A stretch of 64,000 bases of DNA. It comes from Blasia pusilla. Lineage: Eukaryota. Positions 1-57,197 of this stretch are shown here, in pieces (within the stretch, counting starts at the first letter, position 1; each line of letters opens with the position of its first letter). The DNA lies in NCBI GenBank assembly GCA_050084515.1, contig CM114271.1, positions 21,514,001 through 21,578,000 of the forward strand, in the 5' to 3' direction. Below the pieces are notes generated by a model. It was not told where the DNA came from. It made no database searches and saw only the letters and a list, made by a program, of their open reading frames with translations. Position numbers and translations under genes: made by a program.

Positions 1-2230
1 ATTAGAAATCTTTCAACCTAAACATATAGAGATGCAGTGAAACAGGAATCGTAGAAAAGGAGCTTCAGGTGAGAAGGTAGTCTTTCGAGAAGCAGAAGTC
101 GGCACATCAGGACCTCTGAGAGACTTTCAGAGATTGGATTGTGGCTGAAGGATTAGAAAGCATTCTGAAACAGTTCAAATAACTTTTGAGTTCATTGCAC
201 TAAAGAGAGGATACCAGAATTCTAAATAAAGAAAGCTCTCTTACCAGTAGCAGCAACCACACATTATATTCTAGAAATGCTATCTAAAACAAGTAGGTTG
301 GAGAAATTGCATGGCAAAGATGGACTCCATCTTACCATAGCCAAATAGTCATGAAATTTTATATCTTTTGAGCTTTAATGATTGGAAAAATTGTTGTTTT
401 GCGTCTTGAGGGATTATAAAAGTAATCAACAGGCGACCCCTCATTGTAATGTCCCTCCAAAAAAAGCACTAAAATCATCTTTACAACCCCAACTATGCAA
501 TCCTACTTGCCTTGAACCCAAATGTGGAGTATTTAACACTCATACCACCAATCCAAGTATCCTGAAAGTAGTCTTATAAACCTATAGATACCCTCTCATC
601 AAAATTTAAGTAGAAGGTTAGACCAACATCTAAGTCATTTCCATTGCAATCTCTCATCATATCAATGGAACTTTTTACCTTTTACTTCAGAGTGTAAGTG
701 TTTCAGATATCCATTATGGGGGCTAAAGCGAGCTAACAAATGGTTAACAAATGAGTTAACTTATATCTTTTGAAAAAGTAAAAACATTTTAGCCACAATT
801 CTCCACAATGACAATTGTGGAGAATAGAAGCAATTGTAATTCATAATAGTACATATAGTACTAACTTCTATACATTTATATTGGAAAATCTTACTCAAGT
901 TAGCAAGAATAAACAATAAGGGTGCCAAAACATACAATTCTATATCATTTGAAATGATCGCATCTAGCATACATTACCATCATCCAAGTAGGGGAAATAT
1001 CCTTGAAATATCTTAGAATTGACTCCAAAAAGACACAAAATAAATTAACCGTTTGCCAATTAACATGACAACCAACAAATTTTATGATATCTCTTTATGA
1101 CCCTCTAAGAGTCATTGAACTTCTCTTGCAACAATGCAAGAGCGTACTTCCTCTTGGAAGATCCCCTCAAGATATCCAACTGCGACATTCAAAATGGAGC
1201 CCATTTCTATTATCACATCTTAGTATCCGATAGGTAGAGATCTATCGTGGCGAACTAAAAAAGCCAGCGGACTGTTTTTGAGTGTAGCTTTGTCCCGACG
1301 TGTCGAATGAGGTTGAGGATAGGTCTGTTGTGTCAAGAACATCGTTTCTGACAACTTTCCTGTTGGGTTCTTTCACAACCGGATGACTTGTTCAGCAGGT
1401 CACCACCCATGGTAAATTGTGCGCGCAGGTTACCGAGGGGGTTGCTATTTTTAGGTCTCATACCTATATAAGGGAGGAAAATGGCTTTCCCAAGCCATCT
1501 TTCTCATGTTGGGCCGTTGGAGGTTCATTCTTGCTCGGATGTGTGAGTTAGGATTGGTTACTTGCGTCTGGATTCCTTGATAGCACAGGGTGGACGAGGT
1601 TCGATATGTCGATGTAGATTGAGGAGAGGAGTTTTAGGCCGGGTGTGTCATTTTTACTCTTATTTTTACTTTTACATGAGAAAGATACGAGGGGGCAGGG
1701 GGAATTCGTTGTTTGCAGGTAGGCAAGCAAGTTGCCTCGGTTGGGAGCTCTTGGAGGCGCCAATTGGCGTTTGCTTTGTCAATTTTTCGTTCGGAAGGCC
1801 GTGTGCGGAAGCGCTGTTCATGTTTCGTAGATTTCGTTGGTGCATATTGACGAGAACGAGTCTCCGAGTGTAGCACGGAGGATGGCGGCAGGAGTAGTGT
1901 CGTCATATAGCGGCAATGATGAGTGTAAAGGGGAAGGAGAGTTAGATCTTGCAGCTTTTGGGGGGGCTATTTAGTAAAAGAGCAACCAGGTTACAAGAAC
2001 CGGGTTAAGCCAAGCGTGAAGTTTCTGGCGGGGTTGGAGGAGAGTACCAGGTAGAAGACCCGGCGTATTCGGAGTCGCCACAGAGAAAAGGAACTGAATC
2101 GCGGTTGGAGGTCCAATCGCGTGAAGAGCCACAACTGCAAGTAGTCAAAAAGTTGGGAAGTTGAGAGTGAGAAGCGCGTGGCCAGGGGTTGAAGGAGCAG
2201 TACGAGGCGTGTAAGAGAATAATGATGCAC

Positions 2231-3745
2231 TTTGATATAAACGTGTGATGGAAAACCCATCGGAAGTACAAAAGAGGGGGACTCAAAGAGTCAAAACCTG
2301 AAGGCTACAACAAGACCAGAAAAGGAAGAAGGGGGCATTCCCCCCCCTAATGACAAAACTCACCAACAGCAGAGACAATATCAACAACAACAAGAGAGCT
2401 ATGACTACTACTAAGTGGGCCTCTAGCTCCGGCGTCTCCCACAGCCTGAGCCCGCCGCAAAAGCCCATTAGCCTGGGCGCGCTGTAACGCTATGGAGACT
2501 CGCTGCCTACAATAGAGAATCGCAATAGCTAAGGACAACCCATTTCTCGATTGGAGATGATGGGCGCAGTCCGTAAGGAACGAGTCAAACCTCTCCCCCA
2601 TAGCCCCATACATCTCTATGGCCAGGGGGATGAAGATGTGTCCCTCGTGAAGTCGAATGTAGATATGTGTCTTCTTCACCGCCGCCGCCGCCGCCGCCGC
2701 CGCTCCTTGTAGCATTCGCCCTTGGGCCACCACTTGGCCTCGCACTACCTCTTGCATAGGATCTCTAACTACCACGTCCGCCACCACCACCTCAGCCTCT
2801 CATGTCATGTAAAGATAAGCTCGAATAAGGGAATCCCGCATGGAGTAGTGCCTCTCTCTCTGCACATGGAAGCCACTCTCCCAAGCAATACTGAACATGA
2901 TATCCTGCACTGCATCGTGAGTGGCGATCCTCTCACCCCCAACTGGACAGCGTGCCAAATGCACACCAAGTGGATCCAGGCTCCTGCAACACTCACAGTG
3001 TGTCGAACCAACCAACGATGGTTGGGGGAGGCCCAAGCAGAACCGCATCGCTGTAGTATAGGTAAGTGGTGCGATACGGAAAGCCGAGAGAAGGGGGCGC
3101 GCCCCTACCCATGAGCCTGCCCTCTTTCCGGAGCAAGAGCGAATACGGGCCCTAACCTCAATGGGGATATTCCCATCAGACATAGTGCCTCTAAAAACTG
3201 CCTCAAAGTGGGCTTCCATCAAGGAAGATTGGAGCCCAAACTGACCGGAGGTAACTAAGGAGGAGAAAGTGGGGAGAACGGCTCTGGCCTTAACTCGAAG
3301 GGAATCTCTACAAGCTGTGAGTGAAGAATGAAGTGGGAAAGAGCCATCCTCAACCTGGGAGACGTACTGTAGAAGGAGCGGTCTATCTCTAACCAAAAAT
3401 CGGGAGCAAAGGAGGGGTGCCACTGTGGCCCAACTCCCTAAAAAAGCGGAGGGCGCCACTAACCCAGTCGAGAGAAGACCTACTCCACCAAAAGAAATCG
3501 GCCAAGAGGCCTGTCTACGAGCTAACTCCCCCATGGGGCACTCTAAGGAGCCGGGTCCTAGAAGATCCCCAAACACCTGCATGAGCTTCCTATCAAAGGA
3601 TCTATATAGGGAAGAAAGGTGACTAGATGTCCAGACCGTTCTAGTGAGGTAACCAGGTCTACGAGCAAAACAAGAAGAGAGAATGCAAAAGGCGACTTGA
3701 GGGTCACGAATCCTCGTAAGATCATCAACAGGGGCTACGCAAAGA
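2231..3745 (-). mobile_element. 5'-truncated non-LTR retrotransposon with restriction-like endonuclease (CRE/NeSL-type)
   Basis: RT C-terminal ARRQASWPISFGGVGL, CCHC knuckle CECCRSLDPLGVHLARC, RIATHDAV, and PD-(D/E)xK region VVADVVVRDP...KKTH...FIPLAIEMYG. Stop at 2347 with a short 3' UTR. Boundaries approximate. Confidence 0.8.
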
Positions 3746-5076
3746 TTAGCCGGACAAAGAAGAGAGTAAAGACACGCATGCCGAGAAGTGGCAGGAGTAG
3801 GAGAGAGGCGTTGTGATGACACAGGAGGACGCAATTAAGGCGACGGTGAGCTCCTTAGGGAGCCGTGACAAGGCACGTTGTAACTCGGGACAGTTGACGT
3901 AAGGACATGGCTCCCAAGGTGACGAGCATAGGGCAACGTGCCCAAGAAGCACGTAGGCGAGAGTAGAAAAGAGTCGAGAGTTTGGGGCGTAAATAGGTCC
4001 ATAGGAACACATGCCAAAATGGGAGACGAGAGCTAAGTTGGGAGTTGGCTGGGAGTCTAGGACCAAGTGAAAGGAACTATGGGAGACGGAGGCCGGGGTG
4101 GCTTGGTCAGACGGGTCCGAGATGTCGTGTGCATACACATCGTTACAAAATATACATCGTTGTCACCGAAGACACACACAAATACGCACGACCCCATGCT
4201 AACTCATGGTATCCAAATAACGAAACAAGAAGTACCAAAATATCTCCAATAAATCAAGATTCTATCTCTCTCAACACCATAGCTCTCAAATGTGTGCACT
4301 CTCACATGTCTCTTTCAATGTCAAACCAAACCCACTCTCCTAATGAGAGGCTTGGGTTACACACACAAGGCAAGCAAGACCATAGCTCCGCCGCCTCATG
4401 CCAAGAGGTTCAACAAAGAGAGAATGAGCTCTCAAGCTTTCTTTCCTTGAGGTATACCCCTCCCCTCTCCCAAGCTCTCTCCATGGTAACCTATGCTCCT
4501 AAGTTACCTCCTTGGCTCTTGACATGATGTAGGAGGTCAAGGGTCACTTACCAAAAATAAAAAGTCGACCATATACTCAAAATGGTACTTACCTAAAATA
4601 GCAAGTTCTTCAATATGGCTCCAAATGAGCCGAAATGAAGGGGAAACGTGCTCTCTCAGGTTTCTCCGGGCCTCAACAAGTCATTCTCGACCTTGTGAGT
4701 CTATCCTCCACTACTCGCGAAGGCGCTCTACTAAATCTCACCGATCTATCCTAAGAGACGTGACACTTGTCGTGCGCATACTCATCGCTACACAACATAC
4801 ATCGTTGTCACCAAACACAAATATGAACACGCACGATCCCATGCTAACTCATGGCATCCAAACAACGAGACAAGATATACCAAAATATCTCCAATCGCCC
4901 CCCTAGCTGGTGGTTAAGTCCCTCTAACTCTAGATAGTTATCTATCCCTACCTACCATGACATAAATCTCTCGGACGCTAAGAGCAAGAAGGCCAAGTGC
5001 TCATGTGGCCCCATCGTTAGTCGCCTTCTTGTCATCCATCTCACATACACAAGTCGGAATGTAGAACTACCTACTC

Positions 5077-6128
5077 TATGTACATCTGGGACACATCCAT
5101 CATCCTTGAGGAACCCTAGTGAAAGGTGGCGTCAAACATGCCATATGCCATCCTCTCGAATATCCATCATAGACTAGCATATTGGCTGCACCACGAGCAT
5201 AACCACACAACATACATCCTAAGCCTGCAAGAACTACTGCTAAGCTCGGATCAATTGTACCGTCAAAGTTTGGAAGATGACACGGCTCATAGTTACGCAC
5301 ATGGTCCTTCCAAACCATACCATCACGTCCCTCCAATAAGAGAACACCTGATGGCAAAACCTCACGCATTCTCAAGATGGTGCGCCTTGTAGTCACATCC
5401 AACGTCGTGGATGTCGCTGCTGCAAGTAGACATAGTCTCCCTAATGAAACCTCCGGATAGTAGGTCGATAACTCCCCCGCGAATAGGCGCATACCTCAAT
5501 GTATCCCGATGTTTCGAAATCGCCAAGTTCTTAAACGCCATGGGCATCACTCACCAGAACAACTCAGCCCTCTGTAAACATGCTCTCATCCATACATTAG
5601 GGTCATCAAGGTTCAACACCTCTCCAACATCTCTACGAATGGCCATAGGTAAATCTGGCTCACGGCCATAAAGCAGCAAGTACGGTGAGAAAGACGCTAA
5701 GGATACTTGCCCGTTGAATCTGTATCCCATCGCCAACCATGACAACGGGAGGTTCCAATCTCCTAGATTACCTCTCTTCATCGTCTGCACAACCCTCTCC
5801 GCTAGTCCATCCGCCTCTGGTTGATCTCGGAAAATGGTGCGGTGGTCGATCAATGCCTAATCATACAAGGCCTGAAACTCCCCGCAAAAGTCTATACCCT
5901 AGCCTGTCAACACCTTAGTTGGTGCGCCGTAATGACTCAGCACTCGATCTAGGAAGGCATACACTATTCCCTCACTCACTTTGTCAAGCAATGCAACCAA
6001 CTCTATCCACTTCGAGAAGTGCTCGACAATCACCAACACATAACGACTATGATGCTCCTTCAAAGGCAAAGGTCCTGCAAAATTTAAACTCCATCTATAA
6101 CCTAAACCCATGACCGGAAGTGGATAGC
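5077..6128 (-). pseudogene. DDE integrase core followed by a C-terminal PHD finger (degenerate)
   Basis: Integrase: PLPVMGLGYRWSLNFAGPLP...YVLVIVEHFSKWIELV...GAPTKVLTG, QPEADGLAERVVQTMKR, FSPYLLLYGREP. PHD: CMLCG...MLVYDGYSRGWHMACLTPPFTRVPQG*WMCPRC. Confidence 0.88.
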
Positions 6129-6419
6129 AGGTCGATAAGCTAGTGAGGAGCGCGGGAGACTCTTGGTGAGTTTGAGTGGTTGAGCGGGTGAGACAAGGTG
6201 ATGATCACAACGTTCTTCTAGGTTTGGGAAGAACATGGTAGTTTGAGTAGTAGTGGTGGTGTGACACGGAGTGGGGTGAGATATCGAGGGGTTTCTAGTG
6301 AGGAGTCACCTCAACTTCCATTCGTAGCTAGATTGTCATCACTACACAGCGGGCCTGGTGACGAGATTGCAGACGGAGGTAGCGTTACTTGGCAAGAGAT
6401 GGACGACATGAGCCATTGG

Positions 6420-7140
6420 GGCCTGCCTACCTTGTTGACCACAGTCAACGGTGGTCAATCATCGTGCCTCATTGCTTGTGAGCGACAAGCTGGATCTAGA
6501 ATGGAATCCACTAATAAATGGGATGGGCGCTCCACTCTCGCATACCACCTTCGGAACATTGCATGGGGCACCAAGTTGGTCCACCATATATGCATAGACG
6601 CGGGTGATGGGCTCTAGAACCTACACTCGCCGCATCCAAGAACATTGCTAGGCCGATCCAAGCACGCACCTGATGAGCACTCGTCACCATCCGTGATCTG
6701 GAGTCTCCTAAGATTGGCACATTCTCCAGAATGTAGGCTAGAGAACAAGACTGGTGCTCCTGCAATTGCCGTAAGACCCTCAACATCTCCCAACACAACC
6801 TGGACCGAGTGTCAGCCAACCTGCTGCCTCGTCCAACACTCGATTGGCGGTGACATGGCCAACCAGAAATAACCAAATCAATGGTCCCTACCCGCTCTAA
6901 GTCCTACGCCCCCAACAACGAAATATCCCTCGGTAGGGAACTCTGGTACTTCGAACATGGATTTGAGACAATAAGTCGGGAAAACATAGGCGTAACTGTG
7001 CCACATGTCGTAGTGAGACGCGCCTCGCAACATCATCACTCTCCACATACAGGTACTGTTGTACTCGCACTCCTGCCTACAAAACATCATCTAGCCCGGT
7101 GCTAATCCCTCCAAAGAGATCTAACACTCGAATATCCTTC
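6420..7140 (-). pseudogene. DNMT3-like C5 cytosine DNA methyltransferase domain within the retroelement pol (motifs I-VIII; degenerate, C-terminus deleted)
   Basis: Motif I IRVLDLFGGISTGL, motif II YLYVESD, motifs III-IV LPRDISLLGA*DLERVGTIDLVISGWPC, motif VI YILENV, motif VIII region FLDAASVGSRAHHPRL..WWTNL. Order and spacing parallel DNMT3A (IRVLSLFDGIATGL, GPFDLVIGGSPC, WLFENV, IDAKEVSAAHRARYFWGNL). Confidence 0.9.
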
Positions 7141-7493
7141 TTCAGGGTACACCACACAATAGGTGTGATATCCAAGGGTGTCATCGTAGCACTCCTTGAT
7201 ACCTCGAATTCCTCAGACCCATCACACTCTGGTGCAAACGCCTCGCTCCACGCGGTCTGCACGTGCTTATCTGCCAATCGTCGAAGCTCCTCAGTCGAGC
7301 CCCACAACGGCACCTCTCCTCCATGGAATGATGCGACTACCATAACACTCCTCTCCATAGAAATGCCAGGAATGGGAGTATCCTCTACATGGACATGTCC
7401 CTCAATCAAATCACTAGGCCAAGTGACGGGACTGCTAAATGCTGCTAAGGTCGCCATCTCTCCTGGCTGTTGCTTGATCATTGCACCTGTGAA

Positions 7494-8041
7494 TCAAACG
7501 GGTAATGAGCTAATGCGCCCATCACATGATTGCCATCCTAGTGTGTAATTGGCTGACTCCTCCGAGTAATCTAGGGAAAACTTCATCGGGTATAACACTG
7601 TTCCACCAACCAAGATGTCGTAGGACTCTGCATCAATCACTATTGCCTTGGCTCGCACCACGGATGTCCCGGGCGAATCCTCACCACGACCTCCTGTCGG
7701 GTGATATACTGTATGGTACCTGCTCCACCCAAGGATGTCTATATCTGAAAAGGACAACGCTCCACCTCGACTCTCGTCAAGCCCAATCCTATGAATGACG
7801 CTTTCCCCAACATCAGGGGTTGCGCTCCTGAATCCAACAAGACGCGCTGCGGACTAAAAGCTCTACCTCCGGGACTCACCAAGTGGAAGACCGCTCCTCG
7901 TTTATCCAGTAACACAACATCATGAGAAGCCATGGCACGCTCTATCGCGGGTCTAGCGGGCATCTCCGCCATCCTAGCAGCCGTAGCTTGCCATGAATCT
8001 GACGTGGACGGCCCGAGCATCCGCTCCAAGGGCAAGTCCAT
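7494..8041 (-). pseudogene. Retroviral-type aspartyl protease domain of the inner element (frameshifted)
   Basis: LLDSGA catalytic motif and the downstream YDILVG motif lie in adjacent ORFs 7739-8041 and 7494-7757. Confidence 0.85.
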
Positions 8042-10731
8042 CGCTTCCTCTGCAATCTCCTCTTAACGTGATGCAGGAACTCCAACTCCGCGCTCATATA
8101 GTGAAGCGGCCAGCCAAAAAGCCTCGGCGGGCGTACCCCCCAACGTCATAACATCGGAAGCAGAAAATAAAGGAGTGCGATACACAACGGTGGCCGCCCC
8201 CAACAGCGTGCTCGACACATGCCCCTCCTGAGCATCAACATTAGGAGTCCTCGTACTTGCTTCTCCCATCACCCTCTATGCCTGCACACCAACAACATCA
8301 CCAACTCTCCAAGAACTCTGATCAGGACCCATCGATGGGGTCCTCATTGCCTCGGACAACGTGAAAGATTGAGGAAGCCTAGTCTATTTTCGGGCTTCCC
8401 CTCGTTGTGGATCCAACTCTGCGGCTCCTCTATTGGGGGCATATCACCCACGCAGTACATGACTCGACATGAGTTGGTGGTTAGACTCCAGCAAGAGCAT
8501 GAGTCGGATAGTGTGATGGTTTAGGGTCGGGCGATTACGACACCGACGGAGTCGTATGATGCGTTGGTAGGGAGTACAATGTTGTATCCCCTTGGGTTCA
8601 TTCTGGATTTTTGGGAGGAGAAGGTTTCTTATCGGCCAGGGTGGCAATCAAGTGATGGACGGGTGAGCCATCTATTGGTGTTTGAAGGGAATAGTGGTGG
8701 TTCGACCACGTGAGGATACAGTGACCACGTTGGTAACATTCATAGGTGTTGTTCGCTGATCATGAGGGTTTGGAGAGAGGAGCACACATGTAGAGGACAT
8801 TCTCGTAGCAGATAGTCCCACGGAGAGACATGTCAGGGTGGGTGTCTCTTCCCATGGTGCAGAGCTTCTTTATTGTTGTTGGAGATGATCGTTGAGATGC
8901 ATGGAGTGCAGATGAGCTTGTGAGGCAGGTGTGGAGCCGTGTCTATGTTTGGAGTAGGGCACGAGAGTGTTAGATCTCTTTGAAGGGATCAACACGGCGG
9001 GTTGCTGCAGTGTGGCAATGTTTCAGGGACGACGACACCAATGGTGCTAGATGTATATAGGATAGTAGATCATGTGAAGTACATAGGTGTTGACTATCTG
9101 GAGTTAGGGGGACCCAATTGCCAGCTAGGGGGGCGATTGTGGGGTCTCGATGTATATGTGTGAGTTGGGAAGATCGGTGTTGTGTGGTGTGTAGATGTGA
9201 CCAGCAATGTGGGTTGTGTAAGGATGTGTATGCGCACGACAACTGTCACATCTTAATAGCCAATAGGTAGAGATCTATCGTGGCGACGGCATAGAGAGCC
9301 AGCCGATTGTTTCTGAGTGTAACTTCGTCCCGAGGTGTCGGATGAGGTTGAGGATAGGTTCGTTGTGTCAAGAACGTCGTTTCTGACGACTTTCTTGTTG
9401 GGGTCTTTCATAGTCACCCCCCCTGGTAACTTGTGTGTGCAGGTTACCAGGGGGTTGCTATTTTTAGGTCTCACACCTATATAAGGGAGGAAGATGGTTT
9501 TCCCGTTGGAGTATCATTCTTGCTCGTGTGTGTGAGTTAGGATTGATTACTAGCGTCTGGATTCCTTGATAGCACATGGTGGATGAGGCTCGATATGCTG
9601 ATGAAGATTGAGGAATGGATTTTTAGGCCGGGTGTGCCATTTTAGGGGGGCGGTTGTGGGGTATCGATGTATATGTGTGAGTTGTTTGGTTTATGGATGG
9701 ATCGACCCGTGTGTTGGGAAGATCGGTGTTGTGTGGTGTGTAGATGTGACCAGCGATGTGGGTTGTGTAGCGATGTGTATGCGCACGACAGCATCGATAT
9801 ATCCTTACAACTTGGTACTTTGGTTGTTGTCAAAGTGGCCAAAATTGGTCCTATGTGCAATATAGTGCATAGAAAGCACAAAAGCGTTAACCTTTTGCTT
9901 CAATTTGGATATTGGCACGTTGTGACTCCCTACTATAGTTGACGCTCTATTCAAGCCAAAAGCCTCCATTGTTGTACTCTCTAGTCGCAAGTCTTTGATC
10001 AGATCCAACTTATTATCGATAGTAGCAGCATTTGACCATTTATCTGGACATTGCATTGCATCAATGCGTAGAAATGAACTCTCAACTTCCTCCTCTTCTG
10101 ACTACGTAAAAAATACAACCGGATGCCATGTTATAGAAATATCACTTGACTCATTGATCGTGATATCAATTTTCAAAAAAAGGGAATCTCTACATTTTGA
10201 TATTGGTCTTTATGACAAGAACCATGCTAATGTAGTAGCATATATCAATGCAACTCTTCTCATATTCATACAACTCTCTAGTGATTGGTGCATTCCAAAA
10301 AAAAAATATCTTACTCAAAATACTCAAAATCAAGAATTTAGCAAAAGCCAAGACTTCTTTTATTGTATGCACGCATACTTAAATAAAGTCAACATAGCAA
10401 CATCACGAGTTCGATTAGTACTAGAGATGGCCTTGGTCATGGATCTATTCCCATGAGAGCTTCATATGTTCCTTAGATTTTCCATGATATGTAAGGGCTG
10501 AAGCCTTTATGGCACAATTTCTTGTAAAAAACTTTGCACAAAATCTTACCACTTTCTACATGAAATTCTATCTAATTCAATAAAGAATACCACAAATCCT
10601 TCCAAGCTTCAATTCTTATTGGCTATGCCTTCCGAATGTGCATTTTTCTATCCACTTTCTTCTCATATCATATGATAAACATGATCTACTTGTATGCTCT
10701 AAACTATCTTTCTACAATCCTTATTCAACAT

Positions 10732-10832
10732 CTCATTCATAATTCTCCATCTCTTGGCCATCTAAAGGTGGTAGATCTTCCCTCATTCATAATTCTCCAT
10801 CTCTTGGCCATCTAAAGGTGGTAGATCTTCCC
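10732..10832. repeat. Perfect 50-bp tandem duplication
   Basis: ctcattcataattctccatctcttggccatctaaaggtggtagatcttcc occurs twice in tandem. Confidence 0.9.
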
Positions 10833-12372: not shown

Positions 12373-15300
12373 CTACTCCGCCATCTCTTTCTTCTTCTTC
12401 TTCTCCTTCTCCTTCTTCTCCTCTTCCTCCAGAAGGATATTTTTCAATGCTTCATAGCACATAAACGACAGCCCGGCTGCCGGTACAAGCTTAAGACAGC
12501 TGGGCCCAAGACCCCTGTACAAACCAGCCAGTCCCTCCTCTCGAAACACAGAAACCAAACAATCTAATGTATTCCTGTACAGTGGTCTCCCTTTAAGAGC
12601 GCCAACCTGCATCCGCTTACGAGCAACTTCTAGGGGAAATGTGGCAGAGCTAGCAATAGCTCCAGCTAGTGAACCGATCAAAAGAGTTTGAAAATTGCCG
12701 ATATGGTCTGTCTCGAAGCACCTTTTGTAGAGAGAGCGCAAATAATCATAGGCAAAATAATTCGTACCAGCGTATGGGACTATACCGACCACGCTCGGCC
12801 CAAGCCCCCGATATAGCTCCGCAAAGCCTTCCTCGCGGACTATCCGCCATAACGCATGGGAAAAACTGCGATACTCTTCTGGCTGTTTCTCCAATTCGAA
12901 ACAAAGAAACGCATGCATCAGGACCACAGGGATGTTACTTGCTGTGACAGATTGATTTTGGTTTCGAATCGGAAAAAAAAATTTGACGGGGACTCTCAAC
13001 AGTGCTATCTGAACATCTTCTTACGAACTCTGAACACAATATATGCTCCATTACGCTTTCCAAGTTTCCTGCCCTCGTCCATAAACTCCACACCCTTTGC
13101 ATTCGAAATTTACGAATCATCACCGTAGATAATACACAAGACCCTCGGATATCAAAAGAAAAATTTGATTCAATACTGTACAAAAACTTTCACAGATCTC
13201 ATTAACGTGACCTTCCGAAAAGTTAGAACAAAGTGCACAACCCTTCAAAGACCAAGTTACCAAACAAGTGAGCATGACAATGCCTCCTAGAAACCTATTT
13301 AACCTTCCAAATATCCATTTCGCACCGTTTCTGCGACTAACTACGGGATGAACGAGAAGAGTTTGCTAGCTCTCATTCTCTATTCGGCAGAGAGCCTATT
13401 GGCCTTTAGGACCCTTCCATATGTGTGGCTTGGCGTCCCCTCTATCTAACCACGGGCTGAACTAGAGAAGATTGATGGATCTCAGTGTCCAGTCCGCAGA
13501 AGCCTATGGGCAACAAGTCTATGTATGGGCACTGGCGTCTCAACCATCTAACCACCAACCGAAGAAGCAATGCTTTGTTGGTTTCATTTTCTAGGGCCAT
13601 GGGCAATGCACACTTTTTCCTGTGGTTGTGACAACCCCCAATGTCAGAACCAGTTATTGAACTCACGACTCTATTGGGAGGATGTTAGAAAAGTTCCACT
13701 GGACTCAGCAGCCATCCACCTCTGGAGTGTTATTGTCCGAATGGGAAACCACACTCAAATCATCTATTATAATCTGTTGGGTAACTTCAGGTGGGAATTG
13801 AAGGGTCCAGTGATCAGGGCTGAGTAGGTCCGTCTGGGTTAGAGTAACAGGAGGTGATTCTCTTGGCGTGTCTAGTCTGGTATTGGTCTATACGACCAAA
13901 TAGATCCCAATTGGGATAATTTTGGGTACCGGTCGCTGGCACCTTGCCTCTACAACCCTGGGCAGGTCGAGAATGGGTGGCAGTCATACTCCACGCTTCT
14001 GACACCATTGTTGTGCTAACAATACAATAAACTTGGGTCAAAAGTCTTCCTTTTGGGACGGTGTTTCCTACGAGCTATCTCCGTCATCCTATAGGTGATC
14101 TCAGAGAATTTCTTCTCATATTTCGCAGTACACACCATGGTGACTGTGGAAACGAAAACTAACTGGAAGTTAGCATTCCCTCCAGAGAAGAGAGTGCACT
14201 AACCACGGATATGTACGTCGCTATCATCCTGCCATTGAACTAAAAGAAAGCGTATGAAGAGACGCAACAAAAAGTGTAAAGACCATTATTGCATGTGTCT
14301 TAATATAAGTGAGAGGACCATTATGCCATGTGTCCAGGCATTTAAAAGATACGTGACAAAGTCGTGGAGAACGTCTTGGTAAGGGATAATTGAAATAACC
14401 TGAATGGTAAGGCGTGTTTTGAGAAGCTCCAGAGGATACATCAACACTGTGGAACTGATTCCTGCTGCTGAGCCAGCTATTGATGAAGCGGGAATTTTGA
14501 GACCAGCTTCTCCTTCCTTTGGTGTCAAAGCGACTTTCAACTTATCAAATACGAATAGCTGATACAAGGTAAAACAGATAAGGTTAAACCAAGATTTAGT
14601 ACGTTGTTCTTCACAATGTCGGACCCAAGAACTTGACGGCACTAAAACATTGTCCTCACTGAGAGATGAGAAAAAACTGCCAGAAAGTCGTCAATGAACA
14701 CTCCTATCCGAAGCCAATAGACGGGTTTCCTCAAAATTAACAGACAATTATTCAGTTTGAGAGCTTTGGAATTCCAATGCTCTCATTTGAGACTCTGCGT
14801 GAAGACAACATATTCATACTCAAAGACATCGTGTATTTAAATCTTGGCCAATTAAACACTTTCAGGTTTAAAATTTCACCTCGATAGCTTTGCTTGGAGC
14901 CACCCTGATGACATTGATGGTGTTACCGCGAAAGAGCCCTGTCCAACCTTCATTCTCCAAGATCCACTCCATAACGCCTTTGATGGATTTACCATGTCTC
15001 CCAACCATCATATGCGTTCTTATAGTTTCCAATGGAGCTACGGCCGTGCGAGAAAAAGCTCCTGCGATAGCTCCACTAAGCAGTCTTCGCCCATTGCTTC
15101 CTATCTTAATCTGAAATCTAAACCCTTTCCGTCCAGCAGCGTCCGGATGATTCTCACCCGATGATTCATATTCGTCACTAGAACTACAGCGTTCAAAATT
15201 GGTTTGTTTCTCCCGGACAGATTCGTCGAGGGCCAAATGAGTGCATTCATCTACCGAATTGGGAAGGAACTCAGGATGCGGTTTATCCTTCGAAGAGGTC

Positions 15301-15770
15301 ATCGAGCTGAAGTTCGACAGGTCAGGTGTAGACGGATCATATTCAGGTGTCGACCCAGGGAAAAGATGATCCATTGAGTCGTACAGCAACTCGGCACAAG
15401 TTAGTTCGCCGAGTTCTCCTATTTTCCGAATCTTCTGGCTACCACTAAAACTCTCCACGCCGAAAACTGGAGAGTCCTGGCGCGGACCTTCGGACAGCAC
15501 AGCTCCTCTTTTCCTCGACCTCTGCCTTTCAGAAAACGTAACATTCGGCTTGACTTTGGTGCTGAAAACGGGGGGTAAATCTTTCCTTGGAGACGCAGCT
15601 TTTCTGCTGGAAACCTTGAAGAGACTGTGAGAAAAACGGTCGCCATCGGATGTTCGTGACGCATTCAAGCCATTCCAGTTCGCTCGCAGTGGATTGGAAT
15701 TCTTCAACCATGTCACAAACTCCAAAACACTATTAAACGGCGGCTTCAAGTCTAGTGCAGGCCCCGCCAT
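12373..15770 (-). CDS. BT1: Adenine nucleotide transporter BT1 (Brittle1)-like mitochondrial carrier family protein; exons 14880-15770, 14400-14558, 12373-12882
   Basis: Three carrier repeats (APLETIRTH, YPLELLKTR, FPLEVARKR), GLFRGNTINVIRVAPSKAIE, canonical GT-AG junctions in frame, and a long N-terminal extension. Confidence 0.92.
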
Positions 15771-18700
15771 GGAACCCTGCCCTTCGAATCTTCTTCTTCT
15801 CACTCCCTCCCAGTTCTTCCTCTGTCCTTTTCCAAATTCGATTCTCACCGCAACTCAAGCGCTTCGCTCTCCATGTTTCTTCACAATTCGCCCTTCATTC
15901 TGCTGGATCTCCCTACCTTCCACATCCGACGCCGCTTCGCAAAGCCTCCGTCTCCGTATCGCGTTGGCCACTCACTTCTCCGCTGGTGGGCAATATAATT
16001 AAATCACACACACACTCTTATAAAAAGAAAAAATACAGACGACTGACAAATGTTGAAACCCCACCGTTTACCCAACCAACAATCATCTCTACCCTACACT
16101 TCTCACTACTCCTCGGATGTCCCGTGGCAGCGTTGATTCGACGAGTGCGCCTCAAAAGCTTCGAGACGGGCCACGGCCACACGACAGCCAGCCGGACCGG
16201 CTTCCCACGACGCTCCCGCTGTGCCAAGTGTGGACCCAGGTGCCGCCCACTTGGCGAGCTCCCGAGGCTTACACCTTTTCCTGCAGACGGACGCTCCGTC
16301 CCCTTGTACCGAATGCTGATGGGAACCGCGATATGCGGTATTTGTTGAATTTTGAAGCCAGGCTATGGTGGTCGGGGAAGGGGTTGTGGTTTCCCCTTTT
16401 ATCATGTATGTTCGGCAATGCCATAAGGAGTATGTTACAAGTCTAAAGGAGATGGTGAACAAGATTTGATTTATATCGTAAAAGGATATAGATTCATCTC
16501 ACTAACCACAGAAATGTATGGGAGCGGAGATGATGACCAAGGTTTAATTCTATGGTCGTATAAGGATAAAGATTCATCTCCCTAACCATAGAAATGTATG
16601 GGACTACGAGGAACGTTTTTGACGTGTTGGAACACGCCCTGGTCGCGATCAATTTTTTTCAATTGAAAAATGACTTGTCCTTTGACCACTTATAGTGTAA
16701 ACAACTTGTCTCCATCGCTTCGCAACAAACCAATGGGCTTATGAGGGAGGAGCCACTACTAGTCACCATTAAGAAAGCCTCCCAGAGTGTGTGGATAAAC
16801 GAATTGAAATTGAGAAGATGGTCCTTGGGTACTACTGGTTTTACCGGGATTTGTAGTTAATGAATGTGTGCATCTCTTACGTGCAGGTGGTTTATGGCCG
16901 CAGTTTCGGAGGAGGAAAGGATAGGGCCTTGTAGTCAATGACTGCGTGTATCTCTTACGTGCAGGTGGTTCGTTGCCTCGGTTTTACAGGAGAAAAGGAT
17001 AGGGCTTTCATCGATGTTACAGTTGAAGTCCCATCCCTGTTTTGCAGACGTCGTGACTGCTGTGCTGCTCTCTCGTCTTGCAATTCTCTGTGGTTTGAAT
17101 TGTACGGAGTCCGCGAGTAATCTGTCGAGTGCATGAATGCACTGACTACGGCAGACAATGTGCGGCAGTATCACGACCACAAGTATCCTTCGCATAGCCC
17201 CCCCATGGCAAGCTTGTCTGTGCAATGAATAGGTTTGTCATCTACATCATGTACTGTAATGGAACAATGTACTGTCAGGAAAGTAGGAAGCCCATGCGCA
17301 TGCTCTTTATTTCTACAGCTTCAATGCGGCTTCTTACAGGTGGGTGAAATTTGAGGAAACCAATGTATCATTGGGCAGTCGGACGCATCTCGTATGTTGT
17401 CGATCCGGGGATGTCGTTCAGTCGAGTGGAAGTCCGAAAAGTGTTGGAGATCCTAGCCTGAGTAGTATTGGGAGGGGAACTGGACGATGCCTATTGCATC
17501 AATGCCGGAAGGAGGCAGACGAGAAATACTGCAGTGGATAGCGTTCAAGGCGGAGATGAACATCTAGCTAGGATAGTTCCTCCTCTGGCTAACGGCTTAT
17601 GGTCCCAAAGGCTAAGAAAAGCAGTACCTAGCCACTTAACAAACACAAACATCAAAGTACGCTTTGTAGTAAGCAAGCCCAACTCAATCAACTCCACTAC
17701 AACCCGTACATATTGGACAAATTGAACCCTAATTTAGCTGCCTCGCACATTTCTCTTACCTTCTTTTCTAACCCTATCTATCTCTGCTCAAATTCAGCTC
17801 TCATTCATAAATTAAAGTATCTGAAGGAAAGGACTCCACCATCAAGACGTAGAGTGTGGCTAAACCAAATCTTTAGCACTTTTTTCCTTACAACACTCAA
17901 CAGTTCACAAGAAATTCCCGTCATACAAACGTCTCATATCGCCGATGTAAGCACAAACTGGAGTTGCGTACATACCTAAGAACCGATGGGAAGTAGACTC
18001 GCTTGGGACGGCGCTGGTTGAGAATGACGTTTTTTTTTACGCTGGTTGGTTCGCTCTGTTGTAGGTAAATATGGTTGGGCAGGGCTGAAGTCAGCCGAAG
18101 ATGGGGAGAACATTTTCCCCAATAGTTTCATGTTCCAAATCAGCCGTAGAAGACGAATCATATACGTGTTTTCAGTCGGAATACATCGTGGAAAGTGCCT
18201 CGAATGGATCAGCATGTTGAACCCCGAGCATTCAATCGCATTTTCAAGACTCACTTGAACTGCTATTTGCTTCACTCCTCCCTAAAATCATTATACGGAC
18301 TCTGCCACGATGTTCACAACCTCACATGCAGTACACATACAACCAAGTAGCGCTCCAAGGTTTCTCCAGGCTGCGAGCTAATACGAAGAGAGTGGTAGCG
18401 ATTCAGGTCTAGACAGCAAAGTAGGTGAATTCAACGGAGAAAGACACGTAGGGCATGCCACAAGGGTGAGAAGAGGAGATGAGCAGCATTCGACATCCTG
18501 TCCTTGATACGCAAGGCCGCATATTCCAGATTACAATCACGTCGAAGATGGAAGTAGTAGAGGTTCTTGAAAATCTACCAAGACTGGTTGGATATAGAAA
18601 CATTTACATTCTCAAGAGAAGATGCCTTCTTGTTACGAAGAAATGTGTATATGATGCCATGGAATGGTTGACAGATGTGAGATGACAAAATGTTGGTGCG

Positions 18701-19924: not shown

Positions 19925-22900
19925 GCACGACTTGGGAGCTTTGTCGGGAATCACCCATCGCTTCATCAAAACCAATGGCATCAACATGCACATTGCAGAA
20001 GCAGGAACAGGTAAGACGATCAAGACGGTGGTTAAGCTTAGTGAGTTCTCTCGATCCTCAATTTATGCGAAGTGTTACACACTACCATCATAGCTCTTAC
20101 CCCATATACTGCGGGTTAGAAGACGGGAGACAATCGCGTCTGCACACAAAGAATATGGGTTGACCCATTTTACATTCAAATTGCACGTCTATGTCAATTC
20201 CCCGTCAATCTCGTCGGGAAAACTGAAAGAGGACTGTGATCACAGGCATGGGAAAGTTCTCAAATTGCTTTCGAATGCTTTCTCATGTAAGACCGGGGAA
20301 CAAGTTCAACCCATAGGAGACGAAGAAAAAGAAGACCTTACTGTGAAAGCAAAATTAGACTGATCACGAACAGGTAGATGCTGTTCTTGGACAGGGACTG
20401 GAATCGGCCTGTGGGTACTTTCTGATCAAAACCTCGTTTGAACTGATCTTTTCGAAGAAGTCGTTAGGATATTTCCCTATCGAATCGAGCTTCCTTGGGG
20501 TTCTTACTGATGCAATTGCACCAATCATCTGAGACTTCACATAGGAAGTTTCTACTGAAATTGTAGAGTTGCACACTGTATGGCAGGGTTACATAAAGCT
20601 TTATGACTTGGTTGTTGTCTTTTTCGGATTTATACTCTCTTCTCAGACCACGTGGATTTCGTTTCTAATGTCCCTTGGTTACCTGGAAGGCCCCAGCTTT
20701 TGAAAGTCTCGATGAATAAGTTATGGCCAGGAATAGTCTCCTGCTCTTTACTTCAAGAAGCTCTGCGAGTTTCGTGATATGCAATCTATTGTGTTCTTGG
20801 TACGAGGAAACTACAGGACCGCTTGTTCTTCTAGTGCATGGGTTCCCCGATTTTTGGTACACTTGGCGTTCCCAACTACCTGCACTAGCAAAGGCAGGAT
20901 TTCATGCGGTTGCCCCAGACGTTCGAGGGTTTGGTGAAACTGATGGACCATTGGAAGCCGAAAAGTACACAATGTTCGACATAGTCGGCGACTTGGTTGG
21001 CCTAATTGATGCTCTCGGGGAAGACCAGGTGATCACCTTATTCACCATTTATGATGTGCTTCTAATCTGGACTCTGTTTGAACAATCAACTACTTGTGTT
21101 TCTCGTTGTAAGTCTAGACACCCACCAGATTGGAACATCTCGACTCATATGCATGGCTGAATTTAAGGGTGCCACATGATATTACGCTTACTTTTGCTTT
21201 ATAATAACTTGAAGCGCTTTGCTTCGAATCAAGTTTCCCAAAGAGTGATAGTGAGTGTTCTTTTTATTAGCGTCTGACCTGTGCTGTATATGAAGATTGT
21301 ATGAGAACTTACGGCTCATATATCAAGGAGCAGTATGCAAGAGTGTATGTTTTCATGCAATCCACGGTCATTTTTATGAACAGATCTTAAATCTGTGATT
21401 GAGAGGTCCTAAGTCATCGCATCGAGTTCAAAAATGTGACTTAAGGGCTGGTGCTGCTTGTATTCTATATGTTTGAAGCACCCTTCTTGTGCCTCGAGGA
21501 TTGCTGACAAGAGAGAACAGATCTTTGTGGTAGGACACGATTGGGGAGCGGAGGCTGCTTGGGCTTTTGCCCTATTTAGACCAGACAGAGTGCGAGGAGT
21601 ACTTGCCCTCAGTGTTCCGTACGGCCCAAGGCAGGCAAAAGGGAGCTTTCTTTCAAACGTTAGATCACGACTGGGCGAAGGGTGGTATATGGTCCACTTC
21701 CAGGTATTAGGGCGGCTTTGTGTCCGTAGTCGTGAACGTCCATATCTGTTTTTAATGAATTTATGGCAGGTTGGATGCGGGGTGCTGGAAGAGGTAGACG
21801 CTCACCTCTTACTCCCGGACTTGGAGATATTTTGTAAGGTGCCTCAAAGCACGGCACCTTATAAAGAAACATACCCTCTGACGTAAAGAGACATCTAATT
21901 ATTTACAATCAATGGCTCTAGATTCAATCACCACTTTGGAAATTCTCGACATGTCATATTCCACTACATGCAGTCAGATATCAATTTTGCAAAAAAAATA
22001 ATATCAGCTATGGTATCTCTCCGTTTCTTTCTCACCTGTTCCTATTCCTATTCTTTAGAGGCTTGAATTCATGCCAGTCTGAGGGAAGTGTGTGCTCTTG
22101 CCCAAGATTTACTGGCAATTCGGTAGGGACACTGCTCATTTGCTCTTCCTTGAGTTTTCCTCGTACATTGGCGGCCACTGCATTCACCCCATCAGTATCC
22201 AATCTTTCCATAGTTCACGATGGAAAATGGAAAAGGAGAATACTGATATCAAGTTTCCTCTTTTGTTGGAATGTGTTGAACTACAGAAACCAGGATATGC
22301 AGAAGCTGAAATCAACCACATCGGCCTGCCTACGTTTTTACGACAGATTCTGCTTTCTTCGCAAACTAGTCCCTTGATTGTTCCGGATGGCAAAAGACTA
22401 CGGGATGTCTTCCAAGGAAATGCATCACTGACGTCATGGTTCAGTGCAGAAGATCTCAACAATTATGTTCGAGCTTTCGAAAAGAGTGGTTTGACTAGGC
22501 CTTTGAATGTGTACCGCAACATAGAGAGGTGAGTTCTTCACTCCTCTCAGTTAGTGATTAGTTTTCCTTCTCTTCTGCTTATGAGTGTTTGGGGCAGTCG
22601 CATGGATGAGGAGAATAGCTTCGTTTCCAGATGCAATCGGAGAGAGAAATTTGGACACAGCCATTTTCATTTGGGTGGGCATGATTTAGTACTGGTGAGT
22701 GTTCGATGCAGTAGCCATGTTCACAATGAGAGTGGGTGGACTCTCCTTCGGAATATACATGAGTGAACTCCGCAATACCAAATTCCTTTAGCTTCAAGGT
22801 TGGAAAGTGATCACTGATATATGCAGAGTAGCAAGAGCAATCTTTCACCATAAAGCTTGTTCTGTTTGACTCATGAACTTGTCCGATTGACAGAAAGATA

Positions 22901-26289: not shown

Positions 26290-27330
26290 ACTATGGCAAT
26301 TGCAAATCCAATGAAGATAATGTACGATATATGCTCCAGATCCTTTTGAAACAATAATTCCAAAATCCTCCTTACCTAGAAACGTGGTTGAAGTCCAAAA
26401 ATGAATTTTATATCTTTACATTTCCCACATTCCCTAATAATGGAAAAAAGTATCAAAAAAGCAAAAAAATCCCCTTCAATTTCATATTCTCTCATCTATA
26501 TAATTAAAAGAAGACGGGTTTTAAAAACACTACTCAGGTGTCGACACATGTCCTCTAAGGGCTCTTATGATGTCGAAACATGTCACTTTGAGAGAGGGAG
26601 TTGAATTGAGGAGAGATAATAAAGAAAATTAAGTATGAAGGATTGAAATCCAGATGCCCGTGCATAGCACGAGCACTTAGAGCATTTGTTATTTAGTAAA
26701 AAAACTAAGTAACAAACTGGTATCAAAACATAATCTCCATACATAATAAACTAATGAAAGAGTAGATGAAGACTAAGTATGTATGATTGTTCTATAGAAT
26801 GGAAAATCACGAAGATTTACATATTGATCATGAATACACCCTTTTATGAGAAGATTCATTGGCTATTTTTGTGTACATCATGATCACATGTGTATGCATG
26901 CAATGAGGAAAAGAAGTGAAAATATTGAAGGGTTAGTTATCTTGTGAAGCTATGAAGGATTGAAATTCAACCCTTGATATTTTTTTTACCGTTGAAAAAT
27001 TAGGAAAATAAAAGGAAATTTCACAATTCTCCTCAATGGGCACGACCTCTACTACAAGGTATAATGGGAAGAAATTTTTTACGCTTTATATGATGGATAG
27101 TTCATCATCCAGCATACAAGCTCTATTCTCAAATGAATTTCACTAAATACAACTTCACTAGAATGATGATGTAATCAATACATCAATAATAATAATATGA
27201 TGTTTTTTCTTTATGACATGTATTGACCTTTTCAATGTGTGCATATGGAGAGATTCATACAACAAATAATAATGAACTGAAAGCCGTCAAGATTTTTTTA
27301 AATCCAAATTTCTCAATGAATATGGAAACA
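26290..27330 (+). repeat. Dispersed AT-rich repeat, homologous to ~44810-45690; contains a Helitron-like hairpin at ~26657
   Basis: Shared blocks in the same order, e.g. aagtccaaaaatgaat, tgcatgcaatgaggaaaagaa, aaaaggaaatttcaca. Confidence 0.65.
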
Positions 27331-27994
27331 CAATTATGTCACACTAGTTGTAGTCAAGCAAGAGTAGATGGTGCAACCCAATTCAAGGGATATATGTATA
27401 TACTTAGGGATTGAGAGGATAGGAGTAACCTATTGGTCTCCATTGGTGACCTATGTCTATATGTCATCCTTTTGGGGGAATTCTTAGAACCCTCTCGGAG
27501 GTTTCCTGATTGGTTAATCAATAACTTGTTGTACACGTTTGGAGTGGCTTTTGGGCTTACATCACTTTCTTGGAGCAATATTGGGGTCTTGGACAGGGTT
27601 ATACACCTAGGCAAGGCTTGGGAAGGCTAGACTTTCTATATATGAGCCTTTCAAGCACATGCCAAGGGAGGGTGTTGTGGATGTTACATTAGACATGGAC
27701 TTCCTTACATTTAGGAAGGGTTTAGCTTGATTGTTATTGAGAAACTTAGAGAGGGGTGTGTTTCCCAATGGAGTTTTACTATAGAAAGATTTGAGTTATC
27801 TAAGAATTCATTGCGTGCGCTATTATAGATGTTTGTGTATATTTATGGTCATTGGAAATTATGAAAATTGTTGCATGTTTGAATGTGAAATGCCATCTTA
27901 ATAGGTAAGAATGTTCTTAGAGGGAAATTTGAGATGTTGGGCGAAATATAAGTGTGAATGGCTAGCAAGAAAGGGGTTGGCCTAAATAGTTTTT

Positions 27995-28537
27995 GTGCGC
28001 ATAGCAACATTCACATTGCTACACAACATACATCGTTGTCATCAAACATACACACAAACACACATGATCTCATGATAATTCTTGGTATTCAAACATCGAG
28101 ACAATAAGTACCAAAATATCTCCAATCATCCCCCTAGCTAGTGGTTAGGTCCCTAAAACTCCAAATAGTCACATTTCCCTACCTACCATGATATACATCT
28201 TTAGGACGCTAAGAGCAAAAAAGTTCGGTGCTTATGTGGCCCCATAGTTAGTCGCCTTCTTGTCATCCATGTCATAGTTTCAAGTCGGAATTTATAACTA
28301 CCTACTCTATGTACATATGGGACACATCCATCATCCGCGAGAAATCCTAATGAGAAGTGGCGTCAGACATACCATATCCGACCCTCTCGAACATCCATCA
28401 TAGACTATTATAGTGGCTTCACCATGGGCAAAACCACACAACATACAACGTAAACTTGTAGGACCTATTGCTAAGCTCGAATCAACTGTACCGTCGATGT
28501 TAGGAAGGTAACTTGGTGCATAGTTACGCACATGACC
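27995..28537 (-). mobile_element. Second fragment of family 2 (integrase tail, PHD, 3' UTR, PPT, B1)
   Basis: Colinear with 4771-5305. Translation HVRNYAPSYLPNIDGTVDSSLA...CMLCGFAHGEATIIVYDGCSRG. Confidence 0.88.
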
Positions 28538-34296: not shown

Positions 34297-35332
34297 GAAG
34301 GAAGTTATATTTCCTTTGGTTTGTAGTTAAATTTCCATTAAATTTATTTATTTAAAAGTATATTTAAAAATTAAAATTTTTATCATATTATTTAAATTAG
34401 GAGCTCATAAACTATAAATAAAATTTTTTAACATGAAATTTTCTATTTTTTATTAAGATATTATTCCCAATTTTTTTAAATGATTCTTTTGTAAACCACA
34501 TGCTATTTCAATCCTAATTTGATAGAAAAGTATAAAGAAATTAGAGATCCATCTTCTTCACCACGTCCTTACTAGGAATGATCTCTTCGTCACCCAATCC
34601 CTTATGAATAAAGAGTCCTAATTAGACATCAAATTGCAAAATGTTTTTAAGGGTACAATAGAAAATGGATAAAAATCCAAGTCTTATTTATCAGATCATA
34701 GATTGGCATATATCTTAGAGTTCCTTGGGAACAAGGATTCCTCATTGGCATATCAAAATGCAAGGACTTCATCGACAAGGAAAGTAGAATCCGCGCATAT
34801 TTCTTATATGTCAAACGACATATCCATTTTGCAATTGTAATCTACTATGGATGTGAATACGGAGTCACAATTGAGCAACCAAAATGCAAGTACATAGTCA
34901 ACAATGAAATGATATTGCACAAACTCCAAGCATTGATTACAACATTTTAGAGATTGTGGCCAGGAAAGTTGTTTTATAAGACCATGAAAGAAGAAAGAAA
35001 GAAAGAAAACAAGATGAGAGAAGAGTAGGAATAAAATAGCAACAACATCATGTATTCATTTAATTAGCTCGGCCAAAGAAAGCTTTCTTGAATCAACCAG
35101 ATGCATTTCATGAGGTTGATTCAAGATATTTTATCTCTACTTGATTCAATTGGCTAGGGCAAGGCAATGAGAGAAGAGGGTTGTAGATCTTAGAAAGCAT
35201 GAGAATGCAATAGTACTGAGCGCATTCAATTTTCCCATTAGTGAGGAAGATAGTGGAATTTACTAGCAGAACCAATTAAATAGCCCTAGTTGTACTCGAC
35301 AAAATTGGTGAGGAAGGTAATGGAATTTACTA

Positions 35333-57162: not shown

Positions 57163-57197
57163 TCGATCGAGCGGTTACATGCTGGGAGACTGCGGCC

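Follow-up and report, generated by a model that had tools for sequence, protein, structure and literature searches.

A 64,000-nucleotide (nt) stretch of the Blasia pusilla genome (assembly GCA_050084515.1, contig CM114271.1, positions 21,514,001 to 21,578,000 of the forward strand; hereafter, the window) carries decayed Ty3/Gypsy retrotransposons in which two repeat blocks, A and B, are arranged as split direct repeats. Two of these copies, one of family 1 on the plus strand and one of family 2 on the minus strand, contain a short motif in which CACGACA is followed, after a spacer of two nucleotides, by TGTCAC. The motif lies where the first B block (B1) meets the second A block (A2), and the arrangement suggests that integration involves cutting a circular copy of the DNA at a junction of this kind. 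All counts of junctions, joints and A or B copies given below refer to the window. The features that define the repeat layout are listed here, with positions numbered from the first nucleotide of the window; B corresponds to the predicted 5' part of U3 in a long terminal repeat (LTR), and A to the predicted rest of U3 together with R-U5.

9126 to 9135, plus strand: family 1 polypurine-tract (PPT) candidate, TAGGGGGGCG, directly 5' of B1 and within the conserved island 9091-9143.
9136 to 9241, plus strand: family 1 B1, predicted 5' part of U3, 95.3% identical to B2 (101 of 106 aligned positions).
9235 to 9249, plus strand: family 1 B1/A2 junction, gcgCACGACA-AC-TGTCACatc (CACGACA 9235-9241, spacer 9242-9243, TGTCAC 9244-9249).
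9244 to 9642, plus strand: family 1 A2, predicted remainder of U3 with R-U5, TATA at 9478-9485.
9643 to 9790, plus strand: family 1 A/B joint, from alignments, with a retained 10-nt copy of the PPT (9643-9652) and then B2 (9653-9790).
4896 to 4905, minus strand: family 2 PPT candidate, TAGGGGGGCG, directly 5' of B1, from alignments.
4768 to 4895, minus strand: family 2 B1, 86% identical to B2 (84.7% over 118 nt aligned, 4768-4885 against 4123-4240).
4774 to 4760, minus strand: family 2 B1/A2 junction, CACGACA-AG-TGTCAC (CACGACA 4774-4768, spacer 4767-4766, TGTCAC 4765-4760).
4123 to 4765, minus strand: family 2 A2 (4765-4251) and B2 (4250-4123), from alignments.
27991 to 28537, minus strand: family 2-like fragment with a PHD-coding end, PPT and B, running directly into flank with no A (repeat analysis and tblastn).
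35329 to 35919, plus strand: solo A-B LTR, bordered on both sides by ACTA, a 4-bp target duplication; the LTR proper spans 35333-35915, from TGTCAC to CACGACA.

Both junctions named in a preliminary description of the window were located at these positions, and both sit in the 3' portions of decayed Ty3/Gypsy elements. The exact pattern CACGACANNTGTCAC, with any 2-nt spacer, returned two matches in the window and none in 100 dinucleotide shuffles. When up to two mismatches were allowed, four junction matches were found, versus a mean of 1.19 in the shuffles, with 5 of the 100 reaching four; one of the additional, mismatched matches (35909-35923) corresponds to the right end of the solo LTR and its flank. 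A 52-nt stretch across both junctions (4756-4807 versus 9202-9253) is 83% complementary, and the junctions of the two families are therefore taken to be homologous and not independent events. The fixed spacing that had been predicted holds in both cases (2 nt in 2 of 2, with no variation), and the spacer letters differ (AC versus AG). Symmetry about the junction is weak: the perfect inverted repeat is limited to TGTC/GACA (4 bp), and the spacer is not self-complementary.

The preliminary description interpreted the motif as the right end of the element joined to its left end, and the solo A-B copy bears this out. Its outermost bases are TGTCAC and CACGACA (35333-35915), flanked by ACTA, and all other B copies in the window lose similarity directly past CACGACA. 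The flank of the solo copy is a tandem repeat, of which an upstream unit (35236-35304; ...GGAATTTACTAGCAGAACC...) is uninterrupted and provides an empty-site paralogue as control. The TG...CA termini and short target duplication that are features of Ty3/Gypsy elements are thus present in this copy, and ends of this type, when accompanied by a duplication of 4 bp, mark the action of a DDE integrase. The nicking geometry originally put forward also agrees with the motif, as cutting both strands of CA-NN-TG directly after CA would place the nicks 2 nt apart, leaving the 3'-OH CA ends recessed behind 5' overhangs of 2 nt. No 4-bp duplication is found around A2-B2 in either family (CAAC versus GCAT in family 1, CAAG versus TCTC in family 2), so A2-B2 did not arrive as a solo insertion of its own.

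Repeat analysis and alignments give the layout of the family 1 copy, on the plus strand, as an internal remnant, the PPT, B1, AC, A2, a second copy of the PPT, B2 and flank. The family 2 copy, on the minus strand, comprises a pol remnant, the PPT (4905-4896), B1 (4895-4768), AG, A2 (4765-4251), B2 (4250-4123) and flank. Split direct repeats of the form A1-B1-A2-B2, a feature of DIRS-order elements, are present by repeat analysis. B2 terminates in CACGACA in both families, followed by GCAT in family 1 and TCTC in family 2, and the family 2 B2 begins with ATTGGAG, at the position equivalent to the first base after the PPT at B1. The family 1 B1 lacks approximately 33 nt present in B2 and in the solo copy, and a 24-nt deletion in the family 1 A2 covers the self-primer segment described below. 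Within family 1, B1 is 95% identical to its own B2 versus 79-80% to the B copies of the other family; the corresponding margin in family 2 is small, with 85% between B1 and B2 within the copy and up to 83% across families. The arrangement internal-B-nn-A-B is seen twice and an A block followed by a candidate primer-binding site (PBS) without B is seen once, and both ends occur together in no single copy.

The two families are 44.5% identical over their aligned 3' regions. Four islands are conserved between them, at 9091-9114 and 9116-9143 (together the PPT region), 9213-9254 (the junction) and 9762-9793 (the end of B2), and the conservation of the PPT, junction and B2-end islands argues that these sites are functional.

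An inverted repeat with hairpin-forming potential is situated upstream of TATA in all four A copies, as GGTAAC and GGTTACC separated by approximately 10-12 nt (9417-9454; approximately 1405-1440; approximately 35535-35560; and approximately 4506-4486 on the minus strand). Both families retain it, whereas the remainder of A cannot be aligned between them, and in family 1 it is longer (CCCCCTGGTAAC...GTTACCAGGGGG). Both junction-bearing copies are 5'-truncated and stand head to head near 8100. The family 2 (minus) and family 1 (plus) remnants are roughly colinear mirror images meeting in this region (7960-8459); for instance, 7660-7530 (minus) and 8528-8662 (plus) match one protein region, and 7144-7099 matches 8950-8995.

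The remaining landmarks of reverse transcription are found at an A block near the start of the window:

1211 to 1673, plus strand: A-only 5' end of family 1 type, starting TATCAC, with TATAA at 1467 and no B after A1.
1674 to 1686, plus strand: candidate self-priming PBS, directly after the end of A and a perfect complement of 1497-1509.

The 13-mer ATCTTTCTCATGT (1497-1509) lies 30 nt past TATAA and is the putative RNA 5' end and self-primer, the transcription start being placed by TATA distance only; the solo copy has the same 13-mer 32 nt past its TATAA. The 13-nt pair (1497-1509/1674-1686) is the only inverted repeat of at least 9 nt in 1440-1760, a complement of this length was reached by none of 2000 dinucleotide shuffles, and both arms are paired in the minimum free energy and centroid folds. 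The window contains no tRNA genes. A tRNA-Met-type PBS motif was not found near A1, and its best match lies in another, canonical element. As to the priming of plus-strand synthesis, a close variant of TAGGGGGGCG is found directly 5' of B in the fragment at 28 kb, in addition to the PPT candidates beside B1 in the two families. The base after the PPT is exactly the first base of B2 in family 2 and of B in the solo copy. On the 5' side of A2, the letters ...GCGCACGACAAC show no purine enrichment.

These positions depart from the canonical layout, in which the PBS follows the CA of the 5' LTR and the PPT precedes the TG of the 3' LTR. Here the PPT adjoins B1 and the PBS candidate adjoins A, and the TG/CA ends fall inside the unit bounded by the PPT and PBS candidates. 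The A/B joints of the solo copy (...GATTTTT/GTTGTGGGG) and of family 2 (...TTGATTT/ATTGGAG) correspond to the predicted U5 end followed by the predicted U3 start. The joint of the copy at 9244 is imprecise, with a U5 end approximately 14 nt short in the alignment and 10 nt of the PPT retained, and it resembles the aberrant circle junctions of retroviruses. By way of contrast, a canonical TRIM-/LARD-like LTR element of approximately 2.7 kb is present on the minus strand, with LTRs of 295 nt (29381-29675 and 31765-32059) that are 89% identical. Its 5' LTR ends ...CA and is directly followed by TGGTATCAGAAC (PBS 31764-31753), one mismatch from the tRNA-Met PBS motif, so that the canonical PBS-LTR layout is seen in this element.

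Coding remnants are associated with both junction-bearing copies:

5082 to 7960, minus strand: degenerate pol remnant of family 2, with a region preceding the methyltransferase, a C5 DNA methyltransferase (DNMT; approximately 7265-6400), an rve integrase (approximately 6204-5450) and a PHD finger (approximately 5480-5082).
8459 to 8695, plus strand: sole coding remnant of family 1, matching the region N-terminal of the DNMT (tblastn).

Pfam matches in the internal region are confined to the C5 DNA methyltransferase (PF00145, 6514-6903, minus strand, E 1.7e-7) and rve (5902-6204, minus strand, E 2.9e-4). The rve integrase is in line with the DNMT and the PHD finger, just upstream of PPT-B1, and the family 1 copy is devoid of DNMT, integrase and PHD finger. 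The methyltransferase piece is matched by 239 representative proteins, and among its named relatives those of two liverworts, Calypogeia fissa (63%) and Marchantia polymorpha (61%), come closest. In the tblastn comparison with the window (20 DNMT-matching proteins first, then 150 matches listed), residues 592-947 of protein P0036 matched the family 2 remnant at E 2e-69. No reverse transcriptase is left in the window, as judged by Pfam and by tblastn with the DNMT-matching proteins.

A Pfam scan of 23 of the DNMT-matching proteins identified rve and/or Integrase_H2C2 in 12, RVT_1 in 12 and a PHD finger in seven. The order RNase H, DNMT, integrase is seen in 8 of the 23, and the full order in the relatives is RVT_1, RNase H, DNMT, H2C2/rve and PHD. 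A tyrosine recombinase was found by Pfam in none of these 23, and Phage_integrase had no match in the 94 frames of at least 45 codons among the 118 listed between 1000 and 10200. The DDE (rve) integrase characteristic of Ty3/Gypsy pol is present, its order downstream of reverse transcriptase being read from the relatives, as the window has no reverse transcriptase; a C5-DNMT inside Gypsy pol, the Gypsy-DNMT3 feature, is likewise present in line with the integrase. We assign the element to the Gypsy-DNMT3 kind, already published, whose repeats are DIRS-like. Among the Gypsy polyproteins, two positions of the DNMT can be distinguished: upstream of reverse transcriptase in three (P0040, P0023 and P0101), and between RNase H and integrase in eight (P0074, P0079, P0095 and others). 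The window copy fits the latter order.

The layout, the termini, the target duplication and the PPT-like and PBS-like positions are all seen directly in the DNA, and we put at about one half the probability of the following reading. The motif would be the internal abutment of two integrase-recognised termini (...CACGACA on the right and TGTCAC... on the left) of a retrotransposon of the Gypsy-DNMT3 kind, and the joined cDNA of this element would be cut at CA-nn-TG. The integrated form would be A-PBS-internal-PPT-B-nn-A-B. Transcription would run from a start approximately 30 nt past the TATA box of the 5' A to an end inside the 3' A, the minus strand would be self-primed at the PBS adjoining A, and the plus strand would start at the PPT adjoining B. 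Because the PBS follows A and the PPT precedes B, standard reverse transcription would yield a linear cDNA with B-nn-A LTRs, with physical ends, (A/G)TTG... and ...GATTT(TT), that lack TG/CA. Joining of these cDNA ends, in a two-LTR circle or an equivalent tandem, would produce the A/B joint. The DDE integrase would then nick 3' of CA on both strands at one CA-nn-TG junction, and the resulting linear molecule, with processed ends and 2-nt 5' overhangs, would insert with a 4-bp target duplication. The second junction would remain uncut, appearing in the genome as the B1/A2 junction and templating the junction of the next cycle. The integrated copies run from the TG of A to the CA of B and contain an A/B joint that the cDNA lacks, and they can therefore be regarded as circular permutations of it.

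The circular or junction-containing intermediate that was suggested in the preliminary description is retained in this scheme, in keeping with a PPT that adjoins B1, a PBS candidate that adjoins the A-only end, and A/B joints composed of the predicted U5 end and U3 start. Two points of that description are to be qualified. The intermediate had been set in place of a linear two-LTR cDNA, which (with LTR = B-nn-A) is probably still made first; and the genomic junction, described as a pre-formed substrate, would be the uncut survivor and the template rather than the substrate that is cut. As a broader proposition, somewhat less likely than not, a lineage of Ty3/Gypsy retrotransposons with a DDE integrase may, in streptophytes, have moved its attachment (att) sites into the middle of U3. 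With att sites in that position, integration would have to proceed via cleavage of an LTR-LTR-type junction in circular or tandem cDNA.

The repeat layout itself is already published, and the termini, the spacer and the mechanistic reading are new here as far as could be found. The KnitGypsy-Dnmt3 element of Klebsormidium nitens is described as having a DIRS-type repeat structure with Gypsy-typical domains (de Mendoza et al. 2018, PMC5890265, Fig. 4c legend), the DIRS arrangement being A-coding region-B-A-B (Fig. 1e legend). It has a Dnmt3-type C5 methyltransferase within Gypsy pol, to which the DNMT, rve, PHD and PPT-B-nn-A-B of the window correspond. The host differs, and the window copies are decayed and have no reverse transcriptase. 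The main-text passages on KnitGypsy-Dnmt3 (PMC5890265) give no termini, spacer, PBS/PPT positions or mechanism, and literature searches on KnitGypsy, on split direct repeats in Gypsy integrase elements and on Marchantia DNMT3/Gypsy turned up no junction-cleavage mechanism; among the papers listed, none on split direct repeats evidently concerned DDE elements and none on Marchantia was relevant. The A1-B1-A2-B2 topology, with an internal B/A junction identical to the junction of joined ends, is shared with PAT, Ngaro and VIPER (PMC4157794). Those elements use a tyrosine recombinase, whereas the integrase in the window is of the DDE (rve) type and is accompanied by TG...CA termini and a duplication of 4 bp.

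In an older model, reportedly that of Panganiban and Temin in 1984, circle junctions are said to act as retroviral att sites. A later study describes the integrase of prototype foamy virus (PFV) cutting the LTR-LTR junction on both strands 3' of CA, with a 5'-protruding AT and the loss of only 2 nt on integration, and proposes circles as a source of integration-ready linear DNA (Delelis et al. 2005, PMC1180852). HIV-1 integrase is likewise reported to cut its own junction in vitro, as a tetramer (PMC1905944). CA and TG are 2 nt apart in both the PFV and the window junctions. In retroviruses, the junction originates from joined cDNA ends and is absent from the provirus, whereas the window junction is encoded within U3, and end joining would instead produce the A/B joint; moreover, the PFV junction is a long palindrome and the one described here is symmetric over 4 bp.

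Self-priming has precedents among LTR elements in Tf1/sushi and in the plant Tcn1 clade, as reported by Neumann et al. 2019 (PMC6317226). The window resembles these in having no tRNA-type PBS and in a presumed transcript start that is complementary, over 13 nt, to the site right after U5. It differs in that the start is derived from TATA distance and no reverse transcriptase is present, so that the likeness concerns the self-priming layout and not the clade. The Tf1 primer has a length of 11 nt.

Two-LTR circles are generally seen as by-products of failed integration, and the role of their junction as an in vivo integrase substrate has long been disputed. If the proposed cycle is correct, this element family would need an LTR-LTR junction in every cycle and would offer a natural test system for the junction-substrate question. 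The A-B-A-B layout would follow from the integration of a two-LTR circle, whichever enzyme opens the circle. Under the broader proposition of att sites moved into U3, the element would represent a natural, obligate version of the circle-junction route, which has largely been regarded as a dead end in retrovirology, and the split-direct-repeat layout common to it and tyrosine-recombinase elements would be explained. In practical terms, standard LTR-finding tools that expect LTR-PBS...PPT-LTR will mis-annotate such elements.

Several observations weigh against the proposed cycle. There are only two junctions, which are related, with three A/B joints and one A-only 5' end, all in decayed copies, and neither junction-bearing copy has a 5' end of its own. 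Between A1 (at 1211) and A2 the identity is 88% in aligned columns (80% by BLAST), versus 95% between B1 and B2, and another copy may be the source of the A-PBS end at 1211. A single element of 8.6 kb spanning 1211-9790 was considered but could not be established, as its ends have no common duplication (CTAT versus GCAT). The segment after the PBS candidate (1687-4122) matches no gag or pol in Pfam, in a homologue search or by tblastn, and the fold of the whole 5' leader is close to that of shuffled sequences (z = -0.99, with 31 of 200 folding as well). The junction is not a true palindrome, being symmetric over 4 bp, while PFV cleavage needed its palindrome (PMC1180852). Random choice of junction predicts equal numbers of A-B-nn-A-internal-B isomers, of which there are none in the (small) window. 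The differing joints could be inherited subfamily differences; integrase cleavage of the junction, the RNA ends and the circles are inferred.

The permuted layout and internal att sites could conceivably operate with no ligated circle, the A/B joint being made by an end-to-end jump of reverse transcriptase or within a concatemer and the integrase cutting a linear tandem; we think this unlikely, though it deserves consideration. The B-nn-A LTR evidence requires only that the A end be joined to the B start, by whichever route, and at the imprecise joint of the 9244 copy the end of A and the PPT have TA in common, a microhomology that agrees equally with template switching and with end joining. 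No evidence tells a linear tandem from a circle, and no documentation was found of end-to-end jumping by Gypsy reverse transcriptases. It is decidedly improbable that an ordinary LTR element, with A-B as the LTR and linear cDNA ends, is at hand, with B1 as part of the LTR duplicated and passively carried in the internal region, or as what is left of a neighbouring or nested insertion. The canonical TG...CA ends and 4-bp duplication of A-B are as such an element would have them, and the small canonical LTR element with its tRNA-Met-like PBS indicates that ordinary elements are active in this genome. However, the purine tract is missing beside A2 and conserved beside B1, the PBS-like site adjoins A with no B between, and A2-B2 has no duplication around it. 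The same layout and 2-nt spacing also recur in two families that are otherwise 44.5% identical, B1 is closer to its own B2 (95% versus 79-80% in family 1; 85% versus up to 83%, a small margin, in family 2), and the same layout is published for KnitGypsy-Dnmt3 (PMC5890265).

Rearrangement after insertion, in which the B-nn-A-B blocks would have been formed by unequal recombination between copies and would have no role in transposition, appears very improbable. The region is certainly rearranged, with two 5'-truncated copies head to head near 8100, and recombinant forms are present, namely the solo LTR and the fragment in which the internal region and B run straight into flank. Independent events would nevertheless not give an equal 2-nt spacer and PPT-B boundary in two diverged families, and would not conserve the junction island. 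We attach the least weight to a DIRS-order (PAT/Ngaro-like) element whose circle is integrated by a tyrosine recombinase, with the integrase remnant derived from something else. Its attraction lies in the A1-B1-A2-B2 split direct repeats, which are named as the hallmark of PAT, Ngaro and VIPER (PMC4157794). Yet no tyrosine recombinase was detected in the 94 window frames (at least 45 codons, 1000-10200) or the 23 relatives scanned, the rve integrase is collinear with the DNMT and PHD finger and lies a short way 5' of PPT-B1, and the termini are TG...CA with a 4-bp duplication.

Other features of the window include a frame of approximately 495 codons with one in-frame stop (2350-3834, minus strand, as 2803-3834 and 2350-2799), situated after the A-PBS end and before the family 2 copy on a pyrimidine-rich strand, which may be spurious. 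Its 344-codon part (2803-3834, minus strand) has no homologue and no Pfam match, and its atlas neighbours are only unnamed clusters resembling transposable elements, at a recognition below the usual level. A BT1-like mitochondrial-carrier gene with introns occupies 12376-15854 (minus strand), with Mito_carr in three frames and no more than 71% identity to proteins of land plants and Sphagnum. The host is a streptophyte, probably of a liverwort-like type. A second gene with introns, at 20720-21883 (plus strand), encodes an alpha/beta-hydrolase. Open frames of 447-511 codons, with no Pfam match, are found in two GC-rich blocks (0.58-0.59 GC) at 50227-51759 (plus), 57159-58586 (plus) and 56667-58007 (minus). 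Tandem duplications are seen at 38317-38594, 10732-10831, 16476-16603 and 16846-17001, with units of 139 nt (96%), 50 nt (100%), approximately 80 nt and 78 nt, respectively. Dispersed or inverted pairs with 75-82% identity occur in the AT-rich part (33505-34083 versus 43546-42915; 36759-36984 versus 48190-48437; 26348-26492 versus 44856-45002).

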